Source: a virus (taxonomy: Duplodnaviria; Caudoviricetes). From it: a stretch of DNA of 64,000 nucleotides. Both the position numbers and the translations under genes were made by a program. Positions 2,364 to 47,458 of this stretch are shown here, piece by piece; position 1 is the stretch's first letter, and each line of letters begins with the position of its first letter. The notes beneath the pieces were generated by a model. The model had not been told where the DNA came from. It was given only the letters and a program-made list of their open reading frames with translations, and did no database searches. The stretch covers positions 1 through 64,000 of IMG/VR virus record IMGVR_UViG_3300037067_012889, one strand, 5' to 3'.

Positions 2364-3320
2364 ATGATTTTAAATCTACGAGTACGGCCGATAAATAACG
2401 CTAAACGTGAAATAATATTACCACGTGCAGCGAGAACTGTAATCAAGCAACAGCCCGCTGTTACTAAGGTATTGCGTGCAGCGATGCGTCCAAAGCCGGT
2501 GACACCGGTAAAGATGACACCTGCGGTCAATCGTCGAATGCCGGTTATGCCAAAGAGGGGTATCGCCGGAGCAGCTAAGCCGGTAGTTGCCAATTCGAAA
2601 CCCAAAAAACCGATCACGAAAATAATTACTCGTGATCCGCCAGAAGGTAGCACGAAAAAACTACGCGAGCTGCATAATACTTGTGTTGGTCGCATATTGG
2701 TTATCATCGGCAATGGCCCGAGTGTTTTGGAAGTCGATACAGCACGATTATCCGAAAATCCGCGTGTCGATGTTATGTCGATAAATAAACCAGACCTTCG
2801 AGTATGGCCCACAAAATACTGGTTGTTCTGTGATATTTCGCAGCTAAAAAGGCATAACGAGCTATGGGCTAGATATAATGGCTACATATTCAACTCAACC
2901 ATGATTAATGAATCTAGACCGGGAACAATCTTTGTAAAAAACATCCCTGGTTTTGGATTTAGTACCGACTTGGCAAGCGGATTCAATATCGGAAGATCGA
3001 GCGTCTATGCAGCAATGCAAGTAGCATTATGGTTAGGATATGATAAGATATATATTTTCGGTATTGATATGGGTGCTGTCACTGTCGATGGTAAAGAAAT
3101 GCTACACTTCTACGGTGTTAACTTAGATTGCACAGCAGATAGCCGTAAAAAAAGGTTCGCCGAAGAAGCCAAATATTACGAAGACGCAGCACGAACATTA
3201 CCTGAGGAAATTAGGAAAAGATTCTATTTTTGCAGTTCATATAATCGATTTAAATTCCTGGATTATTACAATAGGTTGGATCACCACGCAGCTCTAAAAA
3301 TGATTTGTGACAATGTGTAA
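2364..3320 (+). CDS. MAF/DUF115-like or sialyltransferase-related glycosyltransferase-fold protein with basic N-terminal extension
   Basis: IIGNGPS and ALWLGYDKIYIFGID motifs; about 95 aa K/R/P-rich leader. Confidence 0.65.
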   Translation: MILNLRVRPINNAKREIILPRAARTVIKQQPAVTKVLRAAMRPKPVTPVKMTPAVNRRMPVMPKRGIAGAAKPVVANSKPKKPITKIITRDPPEGSTKKLRELHNTCVGRILVIIGNGPSVLEVDTARLSENPRVDVMSINKPDLRVWPTKYWLFCDISQLKRHNELWARYNGYIFNSTMINESRPGTIFVKNIPGFGFSTDLASGFNIGRSSVYAAMQVALWLGYDKIYIFGIDMGAVTVDGKEMLHFYGVNLDCTADSRKKRFAEEAKYYEDAARTLPEEIRKRFYFCSSYNRFKFLDYYNRLDHHAALKMICDNV

Positions 3321-3327
3321 ATAAATT

Positions 3328-3975
3328 ATGCTAACTCAAAACCTGACTTGTCCATATTGTAGTTCAGAATTTTCAGCAGCTGTATGGGTTGATGGTAAAT
3401 GTGATAAATGTGGTGGCAATTACTATTGGTCGATGGAATTCAATAAAGATCTGACCGATGGTTGGCATGTCATAGAATGGGACAAAAAGAAGTCGATTTA
3501 TATCGCCTCTACATTATCAAATTGGGAACGTGTCAGGGCATTCGTTAGATGTTTTAAGAGGTTAGATATTCCTATAGCATTCGATTGGACGACATATGGA
3601 GAAGAAATCTTCTCTATAAGGGCACCACGTGATTTAGATCCAATATCGTTACGTCAGAAAGCTTTTTGTGAATATAATGGCGTATCGTCGGCGTCATATG
3701 TGTTTGTAATAGAACCAAGCGGACGTGGGACAAATTTCGAATTTGGTATAGCATATCAACGATTTAAAGCCACAAATAACCCAATAATTACAATCCTAGA
3801 CGAAACAGAGACGACAACGCCAGTTAGTTTTCATTATTTGCCAGGTATCAAAAGAACAAAACATGTTAAAAATGCCATTATTGACATTCTGAAACATTTC
3901 GACATTTACATCAAAGATACAGATATCGAAATGCTTGTCCATGATTTGGAGAATTATGATGTTGGATCAGAATAA
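3328..3975 (+). CDS. zinc ribbon fused to nucleoside 2-deoxyribosyltransferase / dNMP N-glycosidase-like domain
   Basis: CPYC...CDKC at the N-terminus; IYIAS and GRGTNFEFGIAY (catalytic-Glu motif GTxxExGxA). Confidence 0.65.
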   Translation: MLTQNLTCPYCSSEFSAAVWVDGKCDKCGGNYYWSMEFNKDLTDGWHVIEWDKKKSIYIASTLSNWERVRAFVRCFKRLDIPIAFDWTTYGEEIFSIRAPRDLDPISLRQKAFCEYNGVSSASYVFVIEPSGRGTNFEFGIAYQRFKATNNPIITILDETETTTPVSFHYLPGIKRTKHVKNAIIDILKHFDIYIKDTDIEMLVHDLENYDVGSE

Positions 3976-4149
3976 AATGCCGTCGAAACCGATCATACCA
4001 GACGGCACTAAGCAACAGAAGACGTTTGCTGGTCCTCATGGTGGTGGAATAGCTTACAATCAGTTATCGGTTGGCAATGATTTCGTCGTCCATAATGCTA
4101 TTCCTGGACACACCCAAAAGCAGAACGTTGAAATCTCAAAACAGAAATA

Positions 4150-4506
4150 ATGCTTATCGAAGAGCTATTGGCCGTTCGTAATCAAATTGCCTCAGCGGCA
4201 CAGGAAGTTTACGATGCTTGGGATCAGGACGAAGATGGAATCGATATCGAAGTAGGTGGCGGAGGTATTTGTGATGAAGTGCAATCTGCCATATCTGACG
4301 TAATAGCATCTAATATAGAATGTGATATAGAAGATGGTGGTTGGGAAGGCGACGATCACGCCAATCTTATCATATCCAGAGGCAACGAGAGATATTTAGT
4401 CGACATCCCGGCACGAGTATACGAGACGGGCGGTGGGATGAACTGGCGCAAAATACCAGATGTCAATATCACAACAGACGACATTATTATCGTTTCTGTT
4501 GATTAA
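4150..4506 (+). CDS. acidic hypothetical protein
   Basis: 118-aa ORF, TAATG-coupled to the upstream ORF. Confidence 0.65.
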   Translation: MLIEELLAVRNQIASAAQEVYDAWDQDEDGIDIEVGGGGICDEVQSAISDVIASNIECDIEDGGWEGDDHANLIISRGNERYLVDIPARVYETGGGMNWRKIPDVNITTDDIIIVSVD

Positions 4507-4529
4507 TTACGTCGTTATTATTGTTCTTG

Positions 4530-4561
4530 AATTGACGTAATGTATTTAAATGACGTCAATT
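4530..4561 (+). promoter_or_regulatory. GTATTTAA promoter-like motif flanked by inverted repeat AATTGACGT/ACGTCAATT
   Basis: Motif at 4542-4549; 9-bp arms at 4530-4538 and 4553-4561, upstream of 4569. Confidence 0.55.
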
Positions 4562-4568
4562 AACAAAA

Positions 4569-5270
4569 ATGGACATAACAATGCTCTATTACATAAGCCA
4601 AAAACTTGAATTAGACATCATGCAGGCGAGCGAGTTAAACGAAGCTATGGAATTAGCTCACGTTTATAGGATGAATGCAGTAGTAGTTCATCCAGACTTA
4701 GTCGCAGATGCATCAATGCAACGAGTTAGAAGACAAGCCAAGTATAAAATTTTAACTACTGTAGATTGGCCGAAGGGTGATAAAGCCGGTGTCAGTAAAT
4801 TCCATAGCATGTCAATCAATGCACTGTCGTGCGACGGATTCGAGATAGCACTCGGTATATTACCACAAGGTATGGCAAAAGCAGAGTCATTGGCAATAAC
4901 CAATTTCATTAGGACAAATCTGCCGCAAGCTACTGAAATCAGATATGTGTTAGGGTGCTTGTCTAGAGAACAAGCTGATGTCGATAATCTATGTATGGGA
5001 ATTAGAGAAACACCGGCTCCGAACTTATTGCGCACAGACATTAATTTACGTTGTGCACAAGCTAAAGCTAATATTTCTGCACATAATACGTCGTTGGCCG
5101 CAATTCTAGCATGTATTAATCGGCCAATTAAGCTGTGCGGTAATATAAACTCCGCTAAGATAATAGCTTCATGCAAGGCTGCTAGATATGGTGTAAGCCT
5201 TAAGCAAGCTCAAACTATAATAAAAGAATTAAAAGAGAATCCAAGTAAGATCGAAAAAATCTTCAAATGA
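4569..5270 (+). CDS. deoxyribose-phosphate aldolase (DeoC)-like TIM barrel, degenerate active site
   Basis: AVVVHP, TTVDWPKG, IKLCGNI and RYGVS occur in DeoC order; the Schiff-base KTSTG motif appears as RTDIN. Confidence 0.65.
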   Translation: MDITMLYYISQKLELDIMQASELNEAMELAHVYRMNAVVVHPDLVADASMQRVRRQAKYKILTTVDWPKGDKAGVSKFHSMSINALSCDGFEIALGILPQGMAKAESLAITNFIRTNLPQATEIRYVLGCLSREQADVDNLCMGIRETPAPNLLRTDINLRCAQAKANISAHNTSLAAILACINRPIKLCGNINSAKIIASCKAARYGVSLKQAQTIIKELKENPSKIEKIFK

Positions 5271-5479
5271 CTAATAGCACCGTCAAAGTTGGTATGTTGG
5301 TGCGCATCTACAATCAAGAACACATTTGGCACGGTGAAATAGGTATCATTCGTGCAACCAAGAGTGGATTTAGCAGAATTGAGCTATTAGGACAATTAGT
5401 ATGGATGCCTAATCATTGGTTGGTTGAGACTGAAGAAGATCGACCTATGGCTCAGGGGACGAGAGATGATCGAATTTGA
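5267..5479 (+). CDS. small SH3/KOW-like beta-barrel protein
   Basis: VKVGMLVRI...WHGEIGII pattern; ATGA overlap with upstream gene. Confidence 0.5.
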   Translation: MTNSTVKVGMLVRIYNQEHIWHGEIGIIRATKSGFSRIELLGQLVWMPNHWLVETEEDRPMAQGTRDDRI

Positions 5480-5804
5480 TATTATCGATGAATTGGGAGA
5501 TAGCGCCGAGCTATTGACAAAATCAGACGTTTGGCTTACAGCAGTAGAAACGAAACTAAGCCAAAGTCTAACGAATCTGTTACACGATTTAGAACAAATT
5601 CAAACAGCAATCAGGATTAAACAGAGACTCCAACAGAATAACAGAGTTGCTATAAGGCGACAAGTACGAAATGGTAGAATGTCTGATGAAGTTATCGAAA
5701 TCTTGCCGCTACCAAGAGCAATACAATTAGCAAATAAAACTGATCGAGATCAGATTAATATATGGGCTGCAGACGGCTATGATGTTCAGGCTGTTATGAG
5801 CTAA
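5466..5804 (+). CDS. hypothetical protein
   Basis: ORF with SD-like GGAC/GAGAG before the ATG. Confidence 0.55.
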   Translation: MIEFDIIDELGDSAELLTKSDVWLTAVETKLSQSLTNLLHDLEQIQTAIRIKQRLQQNNRVAIRRQVRNGRMSDEVIEILPLPRAIQLANKTDRDQINIWAADGYDVQAVMS

Positions 5805-5830
5805 TCGGTAGATTTAGAACAATCAACAAG

Positions 5831-6346
5831 ATGAATCATGTAGGGTATGCTGAGATGGCATATGAGACGCACGATGTGGCATTAATCTGTCTTAACGGAC
5901 ATATTATTAACAGTTCATCTGAGCGTTGTCCAGCTAGAAATTCTTCATTTTGCACTATATGCGGTAAACCAACTATATCAAAGTGCCTATATTGTAATAC
6001 AAACATACGTGGCAGCACGACATACCATGGTAATGTAATTAAGAAACCGCGTCCCATCGGTGTCGCACCAGCCTATTGTGAACACTGCGGAGGAATCATG
6101 CCATGGACAGAAGGTAAATTAGAATCAGCCAAAGAAGCTATAGGCTGGTGCGAAGAGCTAGATGACAAAATAAAGGGTGAGTTGATCAAATCTCTGCCAG
6201 ATATTGCAAAGCAAACACCACGCACTAACTTAGCAGTTGCTCAATTTCAGAGAGCATTAAGAATTGTATTAGATTGTAAAGATTTACTAAAGACACTAAT
6301 CACAGATATAGCAGCGAAGGTCATAGCTGATAAAATCATATCGTAA
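5831..6346 (+). CDS. DUF2321-like zinc-binding protein
   Basis: ICLNGH, FCTICG..TISKC..C..NIRG, YCEHCG..MPWT, TPRT pattern. Confidence 0.75.
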   Translation: MNHVGYAEMAYETHDVALICLNGHIINSSSERCPARNSSFCTICGKPTISKCLYCNTNIRGSTTYHGNVIKKPRPIGVAPAYCEHCGGIMPWTEGKLESAKEAIGWCEELDDKIKGELIKSLPDIAKQTPRTNLAVAQFQRALRIVLDCKDLLKTLITDIAAKVIADKIIS

Positions 6347-7214
6347 TTTTATGTCTCGACTTACCAGACGATGCGTTTAATCTATCCAATTCACTTAACA
6401 ATATCTTAATCTTATCCCCAGTGTCTGAATCTAATCTATTGGTTCCAGGTGGCAATGAATGACGTAACATGGCTATTTTTAAAGCGATTTCTGCTTGCTC
6501 CCTTTTAAGTTGCAAATATGGTATGATTTTCGGCAATATCTCACGCTGTTTATCGGCCATCAGCCTAATGGCCCTAAGTGGCCTTTTATTACCTTTTCCG
6601 CCACCAGAACGTAAAGATCCAACTCCAAGCTGACCTCCCAAATAATCTATCGTTAGCAAATGCGCTAATGAGATTTTATATATTGGTTTTATGGAATGAC
6701 CACCAAGACCAAAACGTCCATTAATGATGGTCCCATCACCATCGGTCATACCGGCCAACCACGGCCAACTAAATATGTGTTCTCTAGGTTCTACATCATT
6801 TATTGCTTTCTTGCCGACTTGATTTAGCTGTCGAACTTTTTTGTAATATGAATGCCATAATTGTGATTCAGCTTCGGAATAAAAAGAATTCTGACCATTT
6901 TTGATATTCAGTGCTGCGAGAGCTAACTTAGCTTGTGGTTGTTTAGTATAAAGATATGGTATTAACTTCGGAAGCAGCAATCGCAATTGGCTACCAGTTA
7001 TTCGGACTGACAATTTTGATGGACGCGGTTGATAATGGCATTTAAGTATTTCACAAACCTTTGGTATGATGATGCTGTCTGTCGTTAGGATTTTGAGATA
7101 ACATCTTCGTATTTTACAACAATGACGTTTTCTTTCGGCCTTAGCATAAGTAAGTATAAAAGAGCCTTCCGCATCAATTACACCACACAACCATTGTATT
7201 TCGTGGTCAAACAT
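6336..7214 (-). mobile_element. free-standing double-motif LAGLIDADG homing endonuclease
   Basis: WLCGVIDAEGSF and WLAGMTDGDGTI; repeated PYLxxKxxQA; start 7214 (MFDHE) follows a minus-strand GTATTTAA at 7229-7236. Confidence 0.9.
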
Positions 7215-7254
7215 ATTATATGTTTGACTTAAATACACAATCAGGATTAAGCAC

Positions 7255-8472
7255 ATGAAAAGCCCATTTCATAAAAACAACACAGGCGGAATGGTAGTAG
7301 TTACGACAGATGGTGGTGCTGGCTCATCTGGTAAAGGTTCCCTCAATTCTTGGCTAGCCGACAAATATCCATTCCACCTGGCCACAAACAACTGGTGCAC
7401 GAATGCTGGCCACTATACCGAACTCGATAATGGGACAAGGATACTCGTCCAACATATACCATCAGCATTTATCAATAAAAACACACAGCTCTACATCAAT
7501 GCTGGTGCGGCGATCGATTTGAAGACGCTTTTTAATGAAGTCTCTAACTTGGAATCTTTGGGATTTCCAATCCGTGATCGTCTTACTATCCACCCGCTCG
7601 CCAATGTAATTACCGAAGAAAATAAACAATATGAACGTGAAACTATCAAGACCGGTAGCACGTTCAAAGGATGTGGTGCTGCTATCGCAGCGAAGGCTAT
7701 GCGATTGCCTCGACAGAAACTCGCCAGAGATTACGAAGAGTTACACGAGTTCTGCACGATTGCCGATTTAACAACAGAGTTGAATCGCCGCATAGCAAAA
7801 CAAGGTATGCGAGTTCTTGTTGAAGGATCACAAGGTGTCGATCTTGATCTTAACTTCGCCGAATATCCATATTGCACATCGCGACAAACACATCCGACAC
7901 AATTGGTCGCTGATGCTGGTCTTCCTGGTAGAGCCATCACGAACGTCGTTATTAATTTGCGCACGAATCCAATACGCATCAGTAATGAATCGGCCGCTAC
8001 TGGTGAACAGTGCTACACAGGCAATTATTGGGAAGCAAGAGAGATTGGATGGGAGGAAGTCGCAAAGCAGGCCGGATATGATAATTTCGATGAATTTGTC
8101 GAAGAGTACAGATATGCAATGATGACATCTGTCACCAAAAAAGTTAGACGAATCTTCGAATTCCCGACTGAGAGAGCCAAATATGTTAATGCTCTTGCTG
8201 GCGGTCTTCTCGAAGAAGGCAATGTTCTTTATAGCCTCAATTTCATCAATTTTGTCGATAGAACCGTCAAAGGCAAGACGACATACGAAGAGGTCTTCAC
8301 GCCCAAGGTCATTAATTGGTTGCGAATGCATCTGCAACCGGTGCTAGAAAACAATGGCAGGTATGTTGATCGTGTGAACGAAAGCTGTGGTGATTCGTCG
8401 GACATGTCGCAATTCTTCGGATTACACTGGGTCAGAACCGGACCGAAGCACAGCCAAATAGTCGAGCTATGA
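7255..8472 (+). CDS. purZ: N6-succino-2-amino-2'-deoxyadenylate synthase (PurZ)-like; adenylosuccinate synthetase family
   Basis: DGGAGSSGKG (Ser at the PurA catalytic Asp), NAGH, GSTFKGCG, VEGSQG, YPYCTSR, TSVTKKVRRIF, LNFINF (instead of PurA TKLD). Confidence 0.8.
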   Translation: MKSPFHKNNTGGMVVVTTDGGAGSSGKGSLNSWLADKYPFHLATNNWCTNAGHYTELDNGTRILVQHIPSAFINKNTQLYINAGAAIDLKTLFNEVSNLESLGFPIRDRLTIHPLANVITEENKQYERETIKTGSTFKGCGAAIAAKAMRLPRQKLARDYEELHEFCTIADLTTELNRRIAKQGMRVLVEGSQGVDLDLNFAEYPYCTSRQTHPTQLVADAGLPGRAITNVVINLRTNPIRISNESAATGEQCYTGNYWEAREIGWEEVAKQAGYDNFDEFVEEYRYAMMTSVTKKVRRIFEFPTERAKYVNALAGGLLEEGNVLYSLNFINFVDRTVKGKTTYEEVFTPKVINWLRMHLQPVLENNGRYVDRVNESCGDSSDMSQFFGLHWVRTGPKHSQIVEL

Positions 8473-9281
8473 GCGTTAAACTAGCTGCTTATATGGACGA
8501 GGTTTTCGATGATCCAGACAAGGCTGGTTGGTTATTAATATCAAAGAAAATCACTAATGTCTGCCTTCGTCGTGCTTGGTGTCGCGACATATCAAGTATG
8601 CCAGATAATGCTATAGGTATACTTGATAACACGCTAACTAAATACGGTTTGTCGCCAGTAATGTTATCTACCGACATAGGTTGTGTAGATCCTGAGAAAC
8701 TGGCTGCCGAAGAACAAAAATTTATCAGAGCTTTACAAATATGCAAATTTTTGAAATGCAAGGCGATTCGTGTCGGTCTTGGCACTACATCGACAAATAA
8801 AAATGCCAGTGAATATGTCCAAAAATGGTTATCGCTCACTTCAAAGCTAAGCATATCATATGACATGTTGTTGCTATTCGAGCCAGAAAGTACAAGCTAT
8901 TATAACCAGCCAGCATCAATCGCGGTCTTCCTAAGCAAATTCAGAAGATGGCAATTGCTACTAGATCCAGCACTACTTGTAATCAGATCAAAAATCAATC
9001 CGTTCGTAAAGTATTGGTCTTTATTGAAATCGCGAACAAGTTTTATCGATATTCATGATTTCAAGAGTGGGAATTCTGCGAAACCAGCTGGATTGGGTGA
9101 TGCACAGCTAGATATTCTGATTGCGGATGCTCTGGTCAACAACTTCACAGGGTGGTTTTGTTTAGAACCGGGTCTTGGTCGCCGATATGGCGATGCGATG
9201 ACCAAAGATAAGACATTCTTATGCGCCCTTGACGCATTTCAAGCACTACTACAAAGAGTACAGTTACCAAAAATTTTATAG
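8469..9281 (+). CDS. sugar phosphate isomerase/epimerase-like (xylose isomerase/AP endonuclease 2 TIM barrel)
   Basis: LAAYMDE, LLFEPE, LLDPA, IHD, PAGLGD and CLEP motifs; ATGA overlap with purZ. Confidence 0.75.
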   Translation: MSVKLAAYMDEVFDDPDKAGWLLISKKITNVCLRRAWCRDISSMPDNAIGILDNTLTKYGLSPVMLSTDIGCVDPEKLAAEEQKFIRALQICKFLKCKAIRVGLGTTSTNKNASEYVQKWLSLTSKLSISYDMLLLFEPESTSYYNQPASIAVFLSKFRRWQLLLDPALLVIRSKINPFVKYWSLLKSRTSFIDIHDFKSGNSAKPAGLGDAQLDILIADALVNNFTGWFCLEPGLGRRYGDAMTKDKTFLCALDAFQALLQRVQLPKIL

Positions 9282-9289
9282 GTAGGTGA

Positions 9290-9511
9290 ATGATGGCAAT
9301 CAATATTTCCGAAGCAATGGTTCAGATGCGTAAAGCTGGCCCACGCGGTATTAGAGCTATACCAATGGCCGGACAAGATGTCAATTCTGGAACATATAAA
9401 ATAGAAATCTTCCGTGGTGTCGGACAATGGGATAGCATATTAGAGGGGCTTCCTAAAGCCACAGCCGATAGTCTTATCAGCCAAGCTACAAGTCGAGTCA
9501 TAATGGAGTAA
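9290..9511 (+). CDS. hypothetical protein
   Basis: ORF with AGGT SD. Confidence 0.65.
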   Translation: MMAINISEAMVQMRKAGPRGIRAIPMAGQDVNSGTYKIEIFRGVGQWDSILEGLPKATADSLISQATSRVIME

Positions 9512-46252: not shown

Positions 46253-47458
46253 GTGAGACGTGCTGTAATAACTGTCGGTCTTGGGTTTGGTGATGAAGCC
46301 AAGGGGGCCACATGTGATTATTTATGCAGAAGGCTTAAAGCCGATCTTGTCGTTCGCTATTGTGGTGGGTGCCAGGCTGCACACAATGTAGTATTGCCGG
46401 ATGGAACACACCACACTTTTAGCCAATTTGGTTCTGGAACTTTTTCTGGTGTCTCGACCTATCTAGGACCAGATGTGATTATTTCACCATTGGCAATGGT
46501 GAATGAAGCTAATCATCTAATTGACATCGGACTACGGAATCCGTGGGCCAGTTTGCGTGTTGATGAGCGATGCCTAATAGCAACACCATATCATCAATCT
46601 CTAAACAGATTCAGAGAACGAAATAGAGGTAATGAGTGTCACGGCTCTTGCGGTATGGGAGTTGGCGCGACACGAGAGCATGCTATATATTATAATGACG
46701 ATGCACTTAGAGTACAAGACTTAGCATCTTATAGTAATACTATAACAAAACTGAGAAAAATACAACAATGGGTCCATGAATCTGCAGGGCATCCAATAAC
46801 AGATCATATGGATTCATATAGCGTTTATGATCGTCTACATGATGCATCTTCTAAAATGCCTATCGTCAGAGAGATGCCAAGATTCAAAATGGCTATATTC
46901 GAGGGTGCTCAAGGTATTCTTCTTGACGAAAATCATGGTTGCCATCCCTATACTACTTGGTCAACAGTCACGCTAAAACACGCCATCGAATTGCTTCGAA
47001 ATACAGACATAGAAGTTAATGTTATGGGGTGTATTAGATCGTACATGACGCGGCATGGAGCTGGTCCGCTATCACTAGAGAACCCAAATTTGATCGGTGC
47101 CGCCGACGCTAGTAATCCGCCAAATGAATGGCAAGGACGTATGCGATATGCTCCGCTTGACTTAAATATTTTAAGTCACTCGAAAGAAGTTTTAGGTGGA
47201 AAGCTTCATAATGTTTCATTGAGTTGTTTAGATCATATCGACGGTTCAATTCCTGTAGTTGATAAAGATATCGAGCATGTAAGCTCAGTAGAGCTTATTA
47301 AAAAAATTGAAAGAGTATTAGCACCGGTCGCTATTACGGGGCGTGGGCCATGTTATACCGATCGCTGCATGGGGAGCTTGTCGTGGCATTCTTTAGAAGA
47401 AACAATCGAGGTGAATGATGGCCAAAGATTTACGGTCTGCAATAGCACAAGCACGTGA
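46253..47458 (+). CDS. adenylosuccinate synthetase-like paralogue (divergent PurA)
   Basis: GFGDEAKG, VRY.GG.QAAH, HGSCGMG, FEGAQG, HPYTT.S, Y.TRHGAGP, SCLD; aspartate loop reads NEWQGRMR. Confidence 0.9.
   Translation: MRRAVITVGLGFGDEAKGATCDYLCRRLKADLVVRYCGGCQAAHNVVLPDGTHHTFSQFGSGTFSGVSTYLGPDVIISPLAMVNEANHLIDIGLRNPWASLRVDERCLIATPYHQSLNRFRERNRGNECHGSCGMGVGATREHAIYYNDDALRVQDLASYSNTITKLRKIQQWVHESAGHPITDHMDSYSVYDRLHDASSKMPIVREMPRFKMAIFEGAQGILLDENHGCHPYTTWSTVTLKHAIELLRNTDIEVNVMGCIRSYMTRHGAGPLSLENPNLIGAADASNPPNEWQGRMRYAPLDLNILSHSKEVLGGKLHNVSLSCLDHIDGSIPVVDKDIEHVSSVELIKKIERVLAPVAITGRGPCYTDRCMGSLSWHSLEETIEVNDGQRFTVCNSTST

Follow-up and report, generated by a model that had tools for sequence, protein, structure and literature searches.

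The window analyzed here, the first 64 kb of the 363,885-bp IMG/VR record IMGVR_UViG_3300037067_012889 (rated complete by CheckV), belongs to an uncultured phage with a 364-kb genome, that is, a jumbo phage. Between positions 2364 and 9511 it carries a run of same-strand genes that includes purZ, whose product is a synthetase of 2-aminoadenine (Z) nucleotide metabolism. This run, the module, encodes an MptE-like protein, an NDT-superfamily protein, a barrel resembling deoxyribose-5-phosphate aldolase (DERA, or DeoC), several small open reading frames (ORFs), PurZ, and usually an isomerase-like barrel, and it is interrupted by two insertions, a DUF2321 gene and a LAGLIDADG gene. With a probability of about 55%, we favor a reading of this region as the core of a Z nucleotide module, conserved in jumbo phages, in which the NDT enzyme replaces adenine exclusion at the triphosphate level. 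The initial annotation of this locus had already named purZ, an NDT/RCL-fold protein, a DeoC-like barrel, and a sugar-isomerase-like barrel coupled to purZ, all of which were borne out, while it missed the MptE-like gene, the small ORFs, two dUTPase paralogues elsewhere in the genome, and the mobile nature of the LAGLIDADG and DUF2321 genes. The genes on which the interpretation turns are the following.

3328 to 3975, plus strand: NDT-superfamily protein of 215 amino acids, recognized by the fold match of its AlphaFold2 (AF2) model and containing the motif GTNFEFGIA
4569 to 5270, plus strand: DERA-fold (DeoC-like) TIM barrel, recognized by AF2 modeling and structural matches, with its probable true start at Met5 (position 4581)
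7255 to 8472, plus strand: PurZ-type succino-amino-deoxyadenylate synthetase of 405 amino acids, matched by phrog_1211, NF038379, and PDB entries 6FKO and 7ODX
8469 to 9281, plus strand: xylose-isomerase-like (AP_endonuc_2, PF01261) TIM barrel of 270 amino acids, matched by PF01261 at 8e-5 and coupled to purZ

PurZ is a short, archaeal-type homologue of adenylosuccinate synthetase, and its P-loop (GAGSSGKG) places Ser25 where PurA has its catalytic Asp13; the corresponding motif with Ser for Asp13, GS(S/C/T)GKG, was present in all eight jumbo-clade PurZ sequences. Its best PHROG match was phrog_1211 (2.8e-47), the PurZ entries 6FKO and 7ODX of the PDB were also matched, and the best NCBIfam match was the PurZ model NF038379 (1e-51), with a score of 176 bits, which is below the model cut-off of 300. 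Residues that discriminate PurZ have been listed in a preprint (10.1101/2025.10.22.683976). In phiVC8 numbering, the window protein has S14, P233, Y244, W252, T262, and F295 in common with canonical PurZ, with Phe at Y298 and Ala at position F12, and it also has the NF-x-N-F/Y ATP motif, while PurZ0 sequences deviated at positions 295 and 298 in an alignment with reference sequences. In a maximum-likelihood tree, PurZ0 formed a separate clade (100/98). Outside it, a polytomy joined canonical PurZ, the sequence from Bacillus phage vB_BpsS-140, and the jumbo-phage PurZ sequences, which split into three deep lineages. Signature residues and tree together thus place the window synthetase with the PurZ type and not with the PurZ0 type. 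A second adenylosuccinate synthetase homologue, encoded at 46253 to 47458, keeps the catalytic Asp (GFGDEAKG), matches PF00709 at 3e-49, which is better than the match of PurZ, and sits on a very long branch; it groups with Escherichia coli PurA and was rejected as a part of the pathway. Likewise, the match of the PurZ search in the 735-kb phage LR756503 was rejected as an ordinary PurA (GDEGKG).

Characterized Z-genome phages pair PurZ with the HD-domain protein DatZ and with MazZ/DUF550. The initial annotation had recognized neither in the window, and their absence extends to the whole 363,885-bp record. For DatZ, the HD family PF01966 gave no match at E ≤ 1 across the genome, and a phmmer search with DatZ of phiVC8 returned nothing; for MazZ, neither PF04447 (DUF550), MazZ of phiVC8, nor PF18909 (DUF5664) matched genome-wide, and the MazG family PF03819 gave solely a chance-level match of 13.5 bits inside a 585-amino-acid ORF. 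PurB, DpoZ of phiVC8, and DmtZ of phage Ghobes had no match anywhere in the genome either. One marginal HD-domain ORF (C1:196245-196529, 22.7 bits, 216 amino acids) was seen in the relative G002, ∼50 kb from its purZ module. Within the module itself, the ∼120-amino-acid ORF at 5424 to 5804, which had no Pfam or NCBIfam match, was considered as a hidden MazZ and rejected, its alignment being devoid of the EExxE/ExxD acidic cluster of MazG. Compared with the canonical purZ-mazZ-datZ(-dpoZ) clusters of S-2L, phiVC8, and the PurZ/DUF550 phages, the window shares Ser in place of Asp13, the ATP-stacking NFxNY/F motif, and accessory nucleotide-pool genes on the same strand beside purZ, whereas its genome is without DatZ, MazZ/DUF550, DUF5664, and DpoZ and is about eight times larger.

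The arrangement recurred across relatives. We compared 12 contexts with enough flanking sequence, namely the window, its close relatives L005 to L007, and eight diverged contigs, together covering three deep PurZ lineages; in the eight diverged contigs, the DERA-like protein was 29 to 49% identical and PurZ 30 to 34% identical to that of the window. In 12 of 12, purZ lay within ∼3 kb downstream of the DERA-like gene, and an NDT-type gene was verified in nine. Since the same gene order was kept in every context, the arrangement is not due to chance, and the co-occurrence with purZ that the initial annotation had proposed looking for in related phages holds for both the NDT-type and the DeoC-like genes, well past the close relatives. 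A tblastn search of 50,697 GenBank phage records found neither the NDT-like nor the DERA-like protein.

In direct searches, the NDT-like protein had no match in Pfam, PHROGs, NCBIfam, or the PDB (phmmer). Its AF2 model, with a predicted local distance difference test (pLDDT) score of 76, could be aligned over residues 53 to 193 (positions 3484 to 3906), the NDT/DNPH1-fold core, to NDT and DNPH1/RCL structures, with VIA Z scores of 12.6 for 7m5h, 11.9 for 7o62, 11.2 for DNPH1/RCL (4p5d), and 10.3 for MilB, supporting the NDT/RCL fold (Z of 11 to 12.6) assigned initially. A C4 zinc ribbon (C8, C11, C25, and C28) occupies the N terminus. All 19 close homologues were on large contigs of uncultured phages, and Tyr58, Asp86, Glu115, and Glu138 were invariant in the core, Glu138 falling within G-T-N-F-E-x-G. 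Tyr58, Glu115, and Glu138 may form the catalytic triad, with Glu115 for the usual Asp; the equivalence to known NDTs comes from motif comparison and not from superposition, and we take the motifs IY-x-A, E-Y-N-G-V, and G-T-x-x-E-x-G to parallel Y7/D72/E98 of Lactobacillus NDT and Y13/D69/E93 of RCL. With DNPH1/RCL and bacterial NDTs (PF05014; 4P5D, 7M5H, and 7O62), the protein shares the fold, the Glu of G-x-x-x-E-x-G after beta4, the Tyr of beta1, and an acidic residue in a D-L-N-G-like motif (Glu115), but identity is at most 10%, Glu stands for their Asp, and the zinc ribbon is an addition of the window clade.

Syntenic NDT homologues of 122 to 172 amino acids in diverged loci connected the window protein to Pfam. 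They were reached from it by BLAST at 3e-21 to 3e-10, and those in L014, L016, and L028 matched PF05014 at 1.6e-6, 2.2e-5, and 1.4e-4; the syntenic homologues scored 28.7, 25.0, 22.5, and 21.5 bits against the Pfam cut-off of 28.8, with no match for the window protein itself. In L033, the slot upstream of the DERA-like gene is filled by a protein of another NDT subfamily (L033:7209-7772; PF15891 at 7e-5 and PF05014 at 2.7e-4) with no BLAST-detectable relationship to the window NDT, which looks like a non-orthologous replacement and suggests that the module requires an activity of the NDT type. These data bear on the alternative of an anti-defense function, for example TIR-like NAD(P) cleavage, in which case the proximity of the gene to purZ would be unrelated to nucleotide pools. 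TIR domains (SPARTA and RRS1) do match the model at Z scores of 11 to 11.5, level with the NDTs, but the homologues matched Pfam NDT families and not TIR, two NDT features are present, a Tyr in beta1 and the motif G(T/S)xxExG, and the linkage to purZ is strict over deep lineages, even where another NDT subfamily serves as the replacement. Considering the Pfam-matching and BLAST-linked syntenic homologues, the motifs, and the L033 replacement, we favor an NDT over a TIR assignment and regard the anti-defense explanation as very improbable.

An NDT-family enzyme acting beside a PurZ-group synthetase has a characterized precedent. The PurZ0 actinophages Ghobes and Wayne use DutZ and DmtZ (Poubanne et al., NAR, Feb 2026, PMC12884076): DutZ, a dUTPase homologue, converts deoxyadenosine triphosphate (dATP) to the monophosphate (dAMP), which feeds DmtZ, an NDT-family enzyme that hydrolyzes dAMP to adenine and transfers deoxyribose 5-phosphate (dR5P) to the Z base. 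As in that system, the window combines an NDT-superfamily enzyme with a PurZ-group synthetase in place of DatZ, and dUTPase-family genes are present in the genome. Both NDT enzymes moreover have a triad of Tyr, an acid or amide, and Glu, and both lack Asp at the 5'-OH-binding position, leaving room for a 5'-phosphate. The window differs in that its NDT has no detectable similarity to DmtZ, its synthetase is of the PurZ and not the PurZ0 type, no dUTPase is fused to its NDT or encoded next to it, DpoZ is missing, and DERA-like, MptE-like, and isomerase-like proteins are added. A second report tied PF05014 proteins to deoxy-Z (dZ) metagenomes and found that NDT-M2 prefers deoxyadenosine (dA) donors (Yang et al., bioRxiv 10.1101/2025.10.22.683976). 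Like the window protein, NDT-M2 is a member of the NDT family; it is statistically tied to dZ phages in aquatic metagenomes. NDTs of its type were reported not to be co-localized with the synthetase and to co-occur with DatZ and PolA, whereas the window NDT gene lies ∼3 kb upstream of purZ in a genome from which DatZ and PolA are absent. Jumbo phages and partners of the DERA-like, MptE-like, or isomerase-like kind are mentioned in neither PMC12884076 nor 10.1101/2025.10.22.683976, and a full-text literature search for PurZ together with aldolase gave nothing relevant.

The AF2 model of the DERA-like protein (pLDDT, 93.2; predicted template modeling score, 0.90) has eight strands, and its top 48 structural matches were all DERAs or designs derived from them (Foldseek, 5e-11; VIA Z of 20 to 22, the best being 22.1, with a root mean square deviation of 2.4 to 2.9 over ∼200 residues). 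In agreement, the Atlas template modeling (TM) score to the PF01791 cluster was 0.79. At the sequence level, the protein had no match to PF01791 or any other Pfam family, PHROG, NCBIfam, or the PDB (phmmer), and a PDB profile search with its alignment yielded only a spurious L18 match. The initial annotation had pointed out that the protein seems to lack the Schiff-base Lys, with RTDIN where DERA has KTSTG, and RTDIN indeed lies at the end of beta6 (residues 153 to 155), Arg155 being encoded at 5031 to 5033. The strand-by-strand correspondence with E. coli DERA is as follows.

beta1: Asp16, in the motif LELD, corresponding to D16
beta3: WPKG (no single residue), corresponding to FPHG
beta4: Glu92, in the motif GFEI, corresponding to D102
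beta5: Arg125, in the motif EIRY, corresponding to K137
beta6: Arg155, in the motif LLRTD, corresponding to K167, the Schiff-base lysine
beta7: Lys188, in the motif IKLCGN, corresponding to K201 and the Gly loop

Among 134 diverse family members, position 155 was Arg in 128 and Lys in six. E14, K77, E/D92, E106, R125, R155, K188, and Q213 were near-invariant, with Lys77, located in the helix of the beta3-alpha3 loop, invariant in 134 of 134; D16, H41, and K69 varied, His41 and Lys69 being invariant only in a closer set of 32 sequences. The six Lys155 variants also changed Arg125 to Cys, Lys188 to Ile, Val, Thr, or Ala, and Asp16 to Val, and this co-variation indicates that positions 155, 125, 188, and 16 act as one functional unit. 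In the 32-sequence set, a conserved polar residue was found at each of the eight strand ends, arguing for an active protein with altered chemistry instead of a decayed aldolase. Thus, the barrel probably either works as an enzyme or binds a phosphorylated sugar or nucleotide, and its predicted chemistry is other than class I aldol cleavage. Relative to DeoC/DERA (EC 4.1.2.4; 1JCL, 4XBK, and 6D33), it keeps the eight-stranded barrel, some of the phosphate loop, and the equivalents of D16, D102 (Glu/Asp), and K201, but it has Arg155 for the Schiff-base Lys, Arg125 for K137, and the new invariants Lys77 and Glu106. The Lys155 subclade comprises L033:7750-8421 and the proteins P0279, P0282, P0288, P0291, P0322, and P0324; the L033 variant is still inside a purZ module, so that a coordinated active-site switch is seen within the purZ-adjacent family.

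A word-indexed search returned 41 homologues of the DERA-like protein, and a search of 1.84 billion proteins gave 220 cluster representatives at E ≤ 1e-3. Since true DERAs greatly exceed this number, the profile evidently does not reach them, and the family is therefore discrete. It appears to be dedicated to purZ neighborhoods of uncultured phages, and our search found no paper describing it.

These results can be assembled into a pathway. PurZ would condense deoxyguanosine monophosphate (dGMP) with aspartate, using ATP, and host PurB would presumably then yield the Z monophosphate (dZMP), the host enzyme being presumed since none is encoded by the phage. Triphosphate-level exclusion by DatZ and MazZ/DUF550 would be dispensed with in favor of the NDT-superfamily enzyme. 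This enzyme is most likely to act on the glycosidic bond in a deoxyadenosine nucleotide, via a covalent Glu138 intermediate, and may release adenine or, as DmtZ does, swap it for another purine. Since DutZ turns dATP into dAMP in PurZ0 phages, the dUTPase paralogues are candidates for that step, and one of the two may supply dAMP here. They are intact, lie outside the window at 170557 to 171063 (plus strand) and 348531 to 348965 (minus strand), and have counterparts in the 99%-complete relative G002, which likewise has two dUTPases, one of them ∼17 kb from its purZ. If the ends of the record are joined, one dUTPase gene of the window genome comes to lie ∼22 kb from purZ. The DERA-fold barrel would be an obligate companion with a chemistry other than class I aldol cleavage.

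Considering the folds, the absence of DatZ and MazZ, and the co-occurrence with purZ, splitting or base exchange of dAMP at the monophosphate level, as the initial annotation had envisaged, is the best-supported role suggested for the NDT protein. The claim that such a route would be undescribed did not survive, as its principle is established: DmtZ has been characterized in PurZ0 actinophages (PMC12884076), and a dA-preferring NDT is on record (10.1101/2025.10.22.683976).

In the initial scheme, the NDT enzyme would split dAMP into adenine and dR5P, the substrate of DeoC. In its fullest form, the DeoC-like barrel would be a true aldolase that uses Lys188 or Lys77 to turn dR5P into glyceraldehyde 3-phosphate and acetaldehyde and thereby pulls adenine destruction forward. 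The barrel has the fold for it, the equivalents of K201 (Lys188) and D102 (Glu/Asp92) are kept, as are one Ser of beta8 and a portion of the Gly loop after beta7, read by motif comparison as the phosphate-binding loop of DERA, Lys77 is invariant in 134 of 134 sequences, and the minority subclade with Lys155 is still beside purZ. Set against this, Arg occupies the Schiff-base position in 128 of 134 members, both PF01791 and the PDB profile search miss the family, hydrolysis of dAMP requires no pulling, and Lys77 sits in a loop helix, a position for which we know of no DERA-type catalytic role. Because the family is without the canonical lysine, cleavage of dR5P by the DeoC mechanism is doubtful as stated, and we judge the full scheme to be quite unlikely. 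A complex prediction for the NDT core and the DeoC-like barrel gave no answer (score, 0.00) and speaks neither way.

Several points weigh against an NDT-based Z module as we have drawn it. Apart from the comparable fit of TIR domains, the NDT-like protein showed no similarity to DmtZ of Ghobes (gp53) either by hhalign (probability, 0.2%) or by phmmer, the equivalent of DmtZ Asp12 is missing (Ser64 in the window protein), and the substrate may be either a deoxynucleoside monophosphate or a deoxynucleoside. Neither dUTPase gene borders the module, and the two proteins resemble ordinary dUTPases by sequence. For the barrel, hhalign of the DERA-like alignment with E. coli DeoC and with an alignment of E. 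coli-type DERAs was not significant, aligning solely the beta3 stretch WPKG/FPHG, and one DERA comparison set was too uniform (≥80% identity) to help; the mapping of Arg155 to the DERA Lys comes from strand order in the model and from motifs, and not from residue-level superposition. Direct observation covers the folds, the motifs, the synteny, and the missing classical partners, and every substrate, the directions of the reactions, and the Z content of the phage DNA are what we infer. Moreover, at least four conserved genes (those of the MptE-like protein, the isomerase-like barrel, the ∼120-amino-acid ORF, and the 73-amino-acid ORF) have no place in the scheme, and the true pathway may therefore differ. 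The remaining features of the region are listed below.

2364 to 3320, plus strand: MptE-like/GT42-like protein of 318 amino acids (PF01973, 4.9e-4), the first gene of the conserved module
3935 to 4150, plus strand: small conserved ORF of 60 to 71 amino acids, with homologues in relatives, whose start falls ∼7 codons later
5267 to 5479, plus strand: small conserved ORF of 70 amino acids, with homologues in L005 to L007, L012, L028, and L033
5424 to 5804, plus strand: conserved protein of ∼113 to 126 amino acids, with a probable start at 5466, present in all lineages checked at 33 to 75% identity
5831 to 6346, plus strand: DUF2321 zinc-ribbon protein (PF10083, 5e-37), an insertion outside the module proper
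6336 to 7256, minus strand: LAGLIDADG homing endonuclease (PF00961, 1.9e-4; phrog_5046, 1e-21), a mobile insertion
9290 to 9511, plus strand: conserved ORF of 73 amino acids located 3' of the barrel in most lineages, at 39 to 51% identity in L014, L015, L016, and L028

The MptE-like protein is the best-conserved member of the module, with 39 to 45% identity where PurZ reaches only 30 to 34%. Its core is strongly conserved and carries the motifs GNGPS and G-x-D-M; weak collinear matches to motifs of the sialyltransferase Cst-II were detected, and Atlas gave a TM score of ∼0.8 to clusters of MptE-like and WaaZ Kdo-transferase proteins. The core is preceded by a basic, low-complexity stretch of ∼100 residues rich in Pro, Val, and Lys (2364 to 2660), and such a stretch was present in all lineages, with poorly conserved sequence. 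At the other end of the module, the start of the isomerase-like barrel overlaps the stop of purZ as ATGA, and purZ and the barrel gene are coupled in several lineages. The PF01261 match of the barrel (8e-5, 22.9 bits) was stronger in the L015 homologue (6.8e-7, 29.7 bits; cut-off, 31.1), and its Atlas feature score to PF01261 clusters was 0.96. The ligand set E150/D166/H196/E232 is intact in the window protein and degenerate (H to R, E to K) in L012 and L016, and the barrel is absent in L033. The 73-amino-acid ORF had no Pfam match, and the ORF at 3935 to 4150 was 77 to 82% identical in L005 to L007 and 47% identical in L012.

Such conservation raises the alternative that PurZ and the DERA-like, MptE/GT42-like, and isomerase-like proteins act together, with either the succinyl intermediate (for instance, through a lyase activity that does without PurB) or deoxyribose-phosphate as their target, giving a hypermodified purine or a recycled precursor that is other, or more, than plain Z. 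At least eight genes are conserved together, several of them without a role in known Z pathways, the MptE-like protein being conserved best; PurB is missing from the phage; translational coupling ties the barrel to purZ in several lineages; and the Arg-rich active face of the DERA-like protein (R52, R125, R155, and K188) would suit a polyanionic ligand. However, none of the module families is known to tailor purines, PurB is ubiquitous among hosts, the metal ligands of the isomerase-like barrel decay in some lineages and the barrel itself is missing in L033, and the signature residues of PurZ are those of an ordinary enzyme using dGMP and ATP. We therefore consider tailoring of this kind rather unlikely. 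In a bolder form, on which we likewise place only modest weight, the module of at least eight genes may be a self-contained, undescribed purine-editing pathway in which the DERA-like, MptE/GT42-like, and isomerase-like proteins perform new chemistry on dR5P or on the N6-succinyl intermediate. Were this so, dR5P from dAMP might, for example, be recycled into dGMP or dZMP, or a PurB-independent lyase step might operate, and the adenine pool would be turned into Z or a further-modified purine by a route without a characterized counterpart.

For the Z module with NDT-based adenine removal, the implications are as follows. The known Z toolkits are two, DatZ/MazZ with PurZ and DutZ/DmtZ with PurZ0, and the window module would be a third, in which jumbo phages combine an independently recruited NDT enzyme with a PurZ-type synthetase and lack a Z-specific polymerase of family A. 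Should the proteins act in the proposed way, they would provide compact parts for Z-DNA synthesis in vivo and would add to the published argument that adenine exclusion evolved convergently. In addition, the exchange of the catalytic lysine for arginine makes the DERA-like family a clean target for new barrel chemistry.

The region upstream of purZ looks like a hot spot of mobile insertions. The LAGLIDADG gene abuts the start of purZ on the opposite strand with an overlap of 2 nucleotides and is found in L005 and absent from L006 and L007, and the DUF2321 gene (5831 to 6346) is absent from all three of these relatives and unique to the window genome. Downstream, two diverged lineages (L015:5830-6528 and the P0044 contig) have a gene for a NucS-type endonuclease 1 to 2 kb 3' of purZ and the barrel gene, and a large helicase/methyltransferase gene (Eco57I/MmeI-like) lies near NucS in one of the two.

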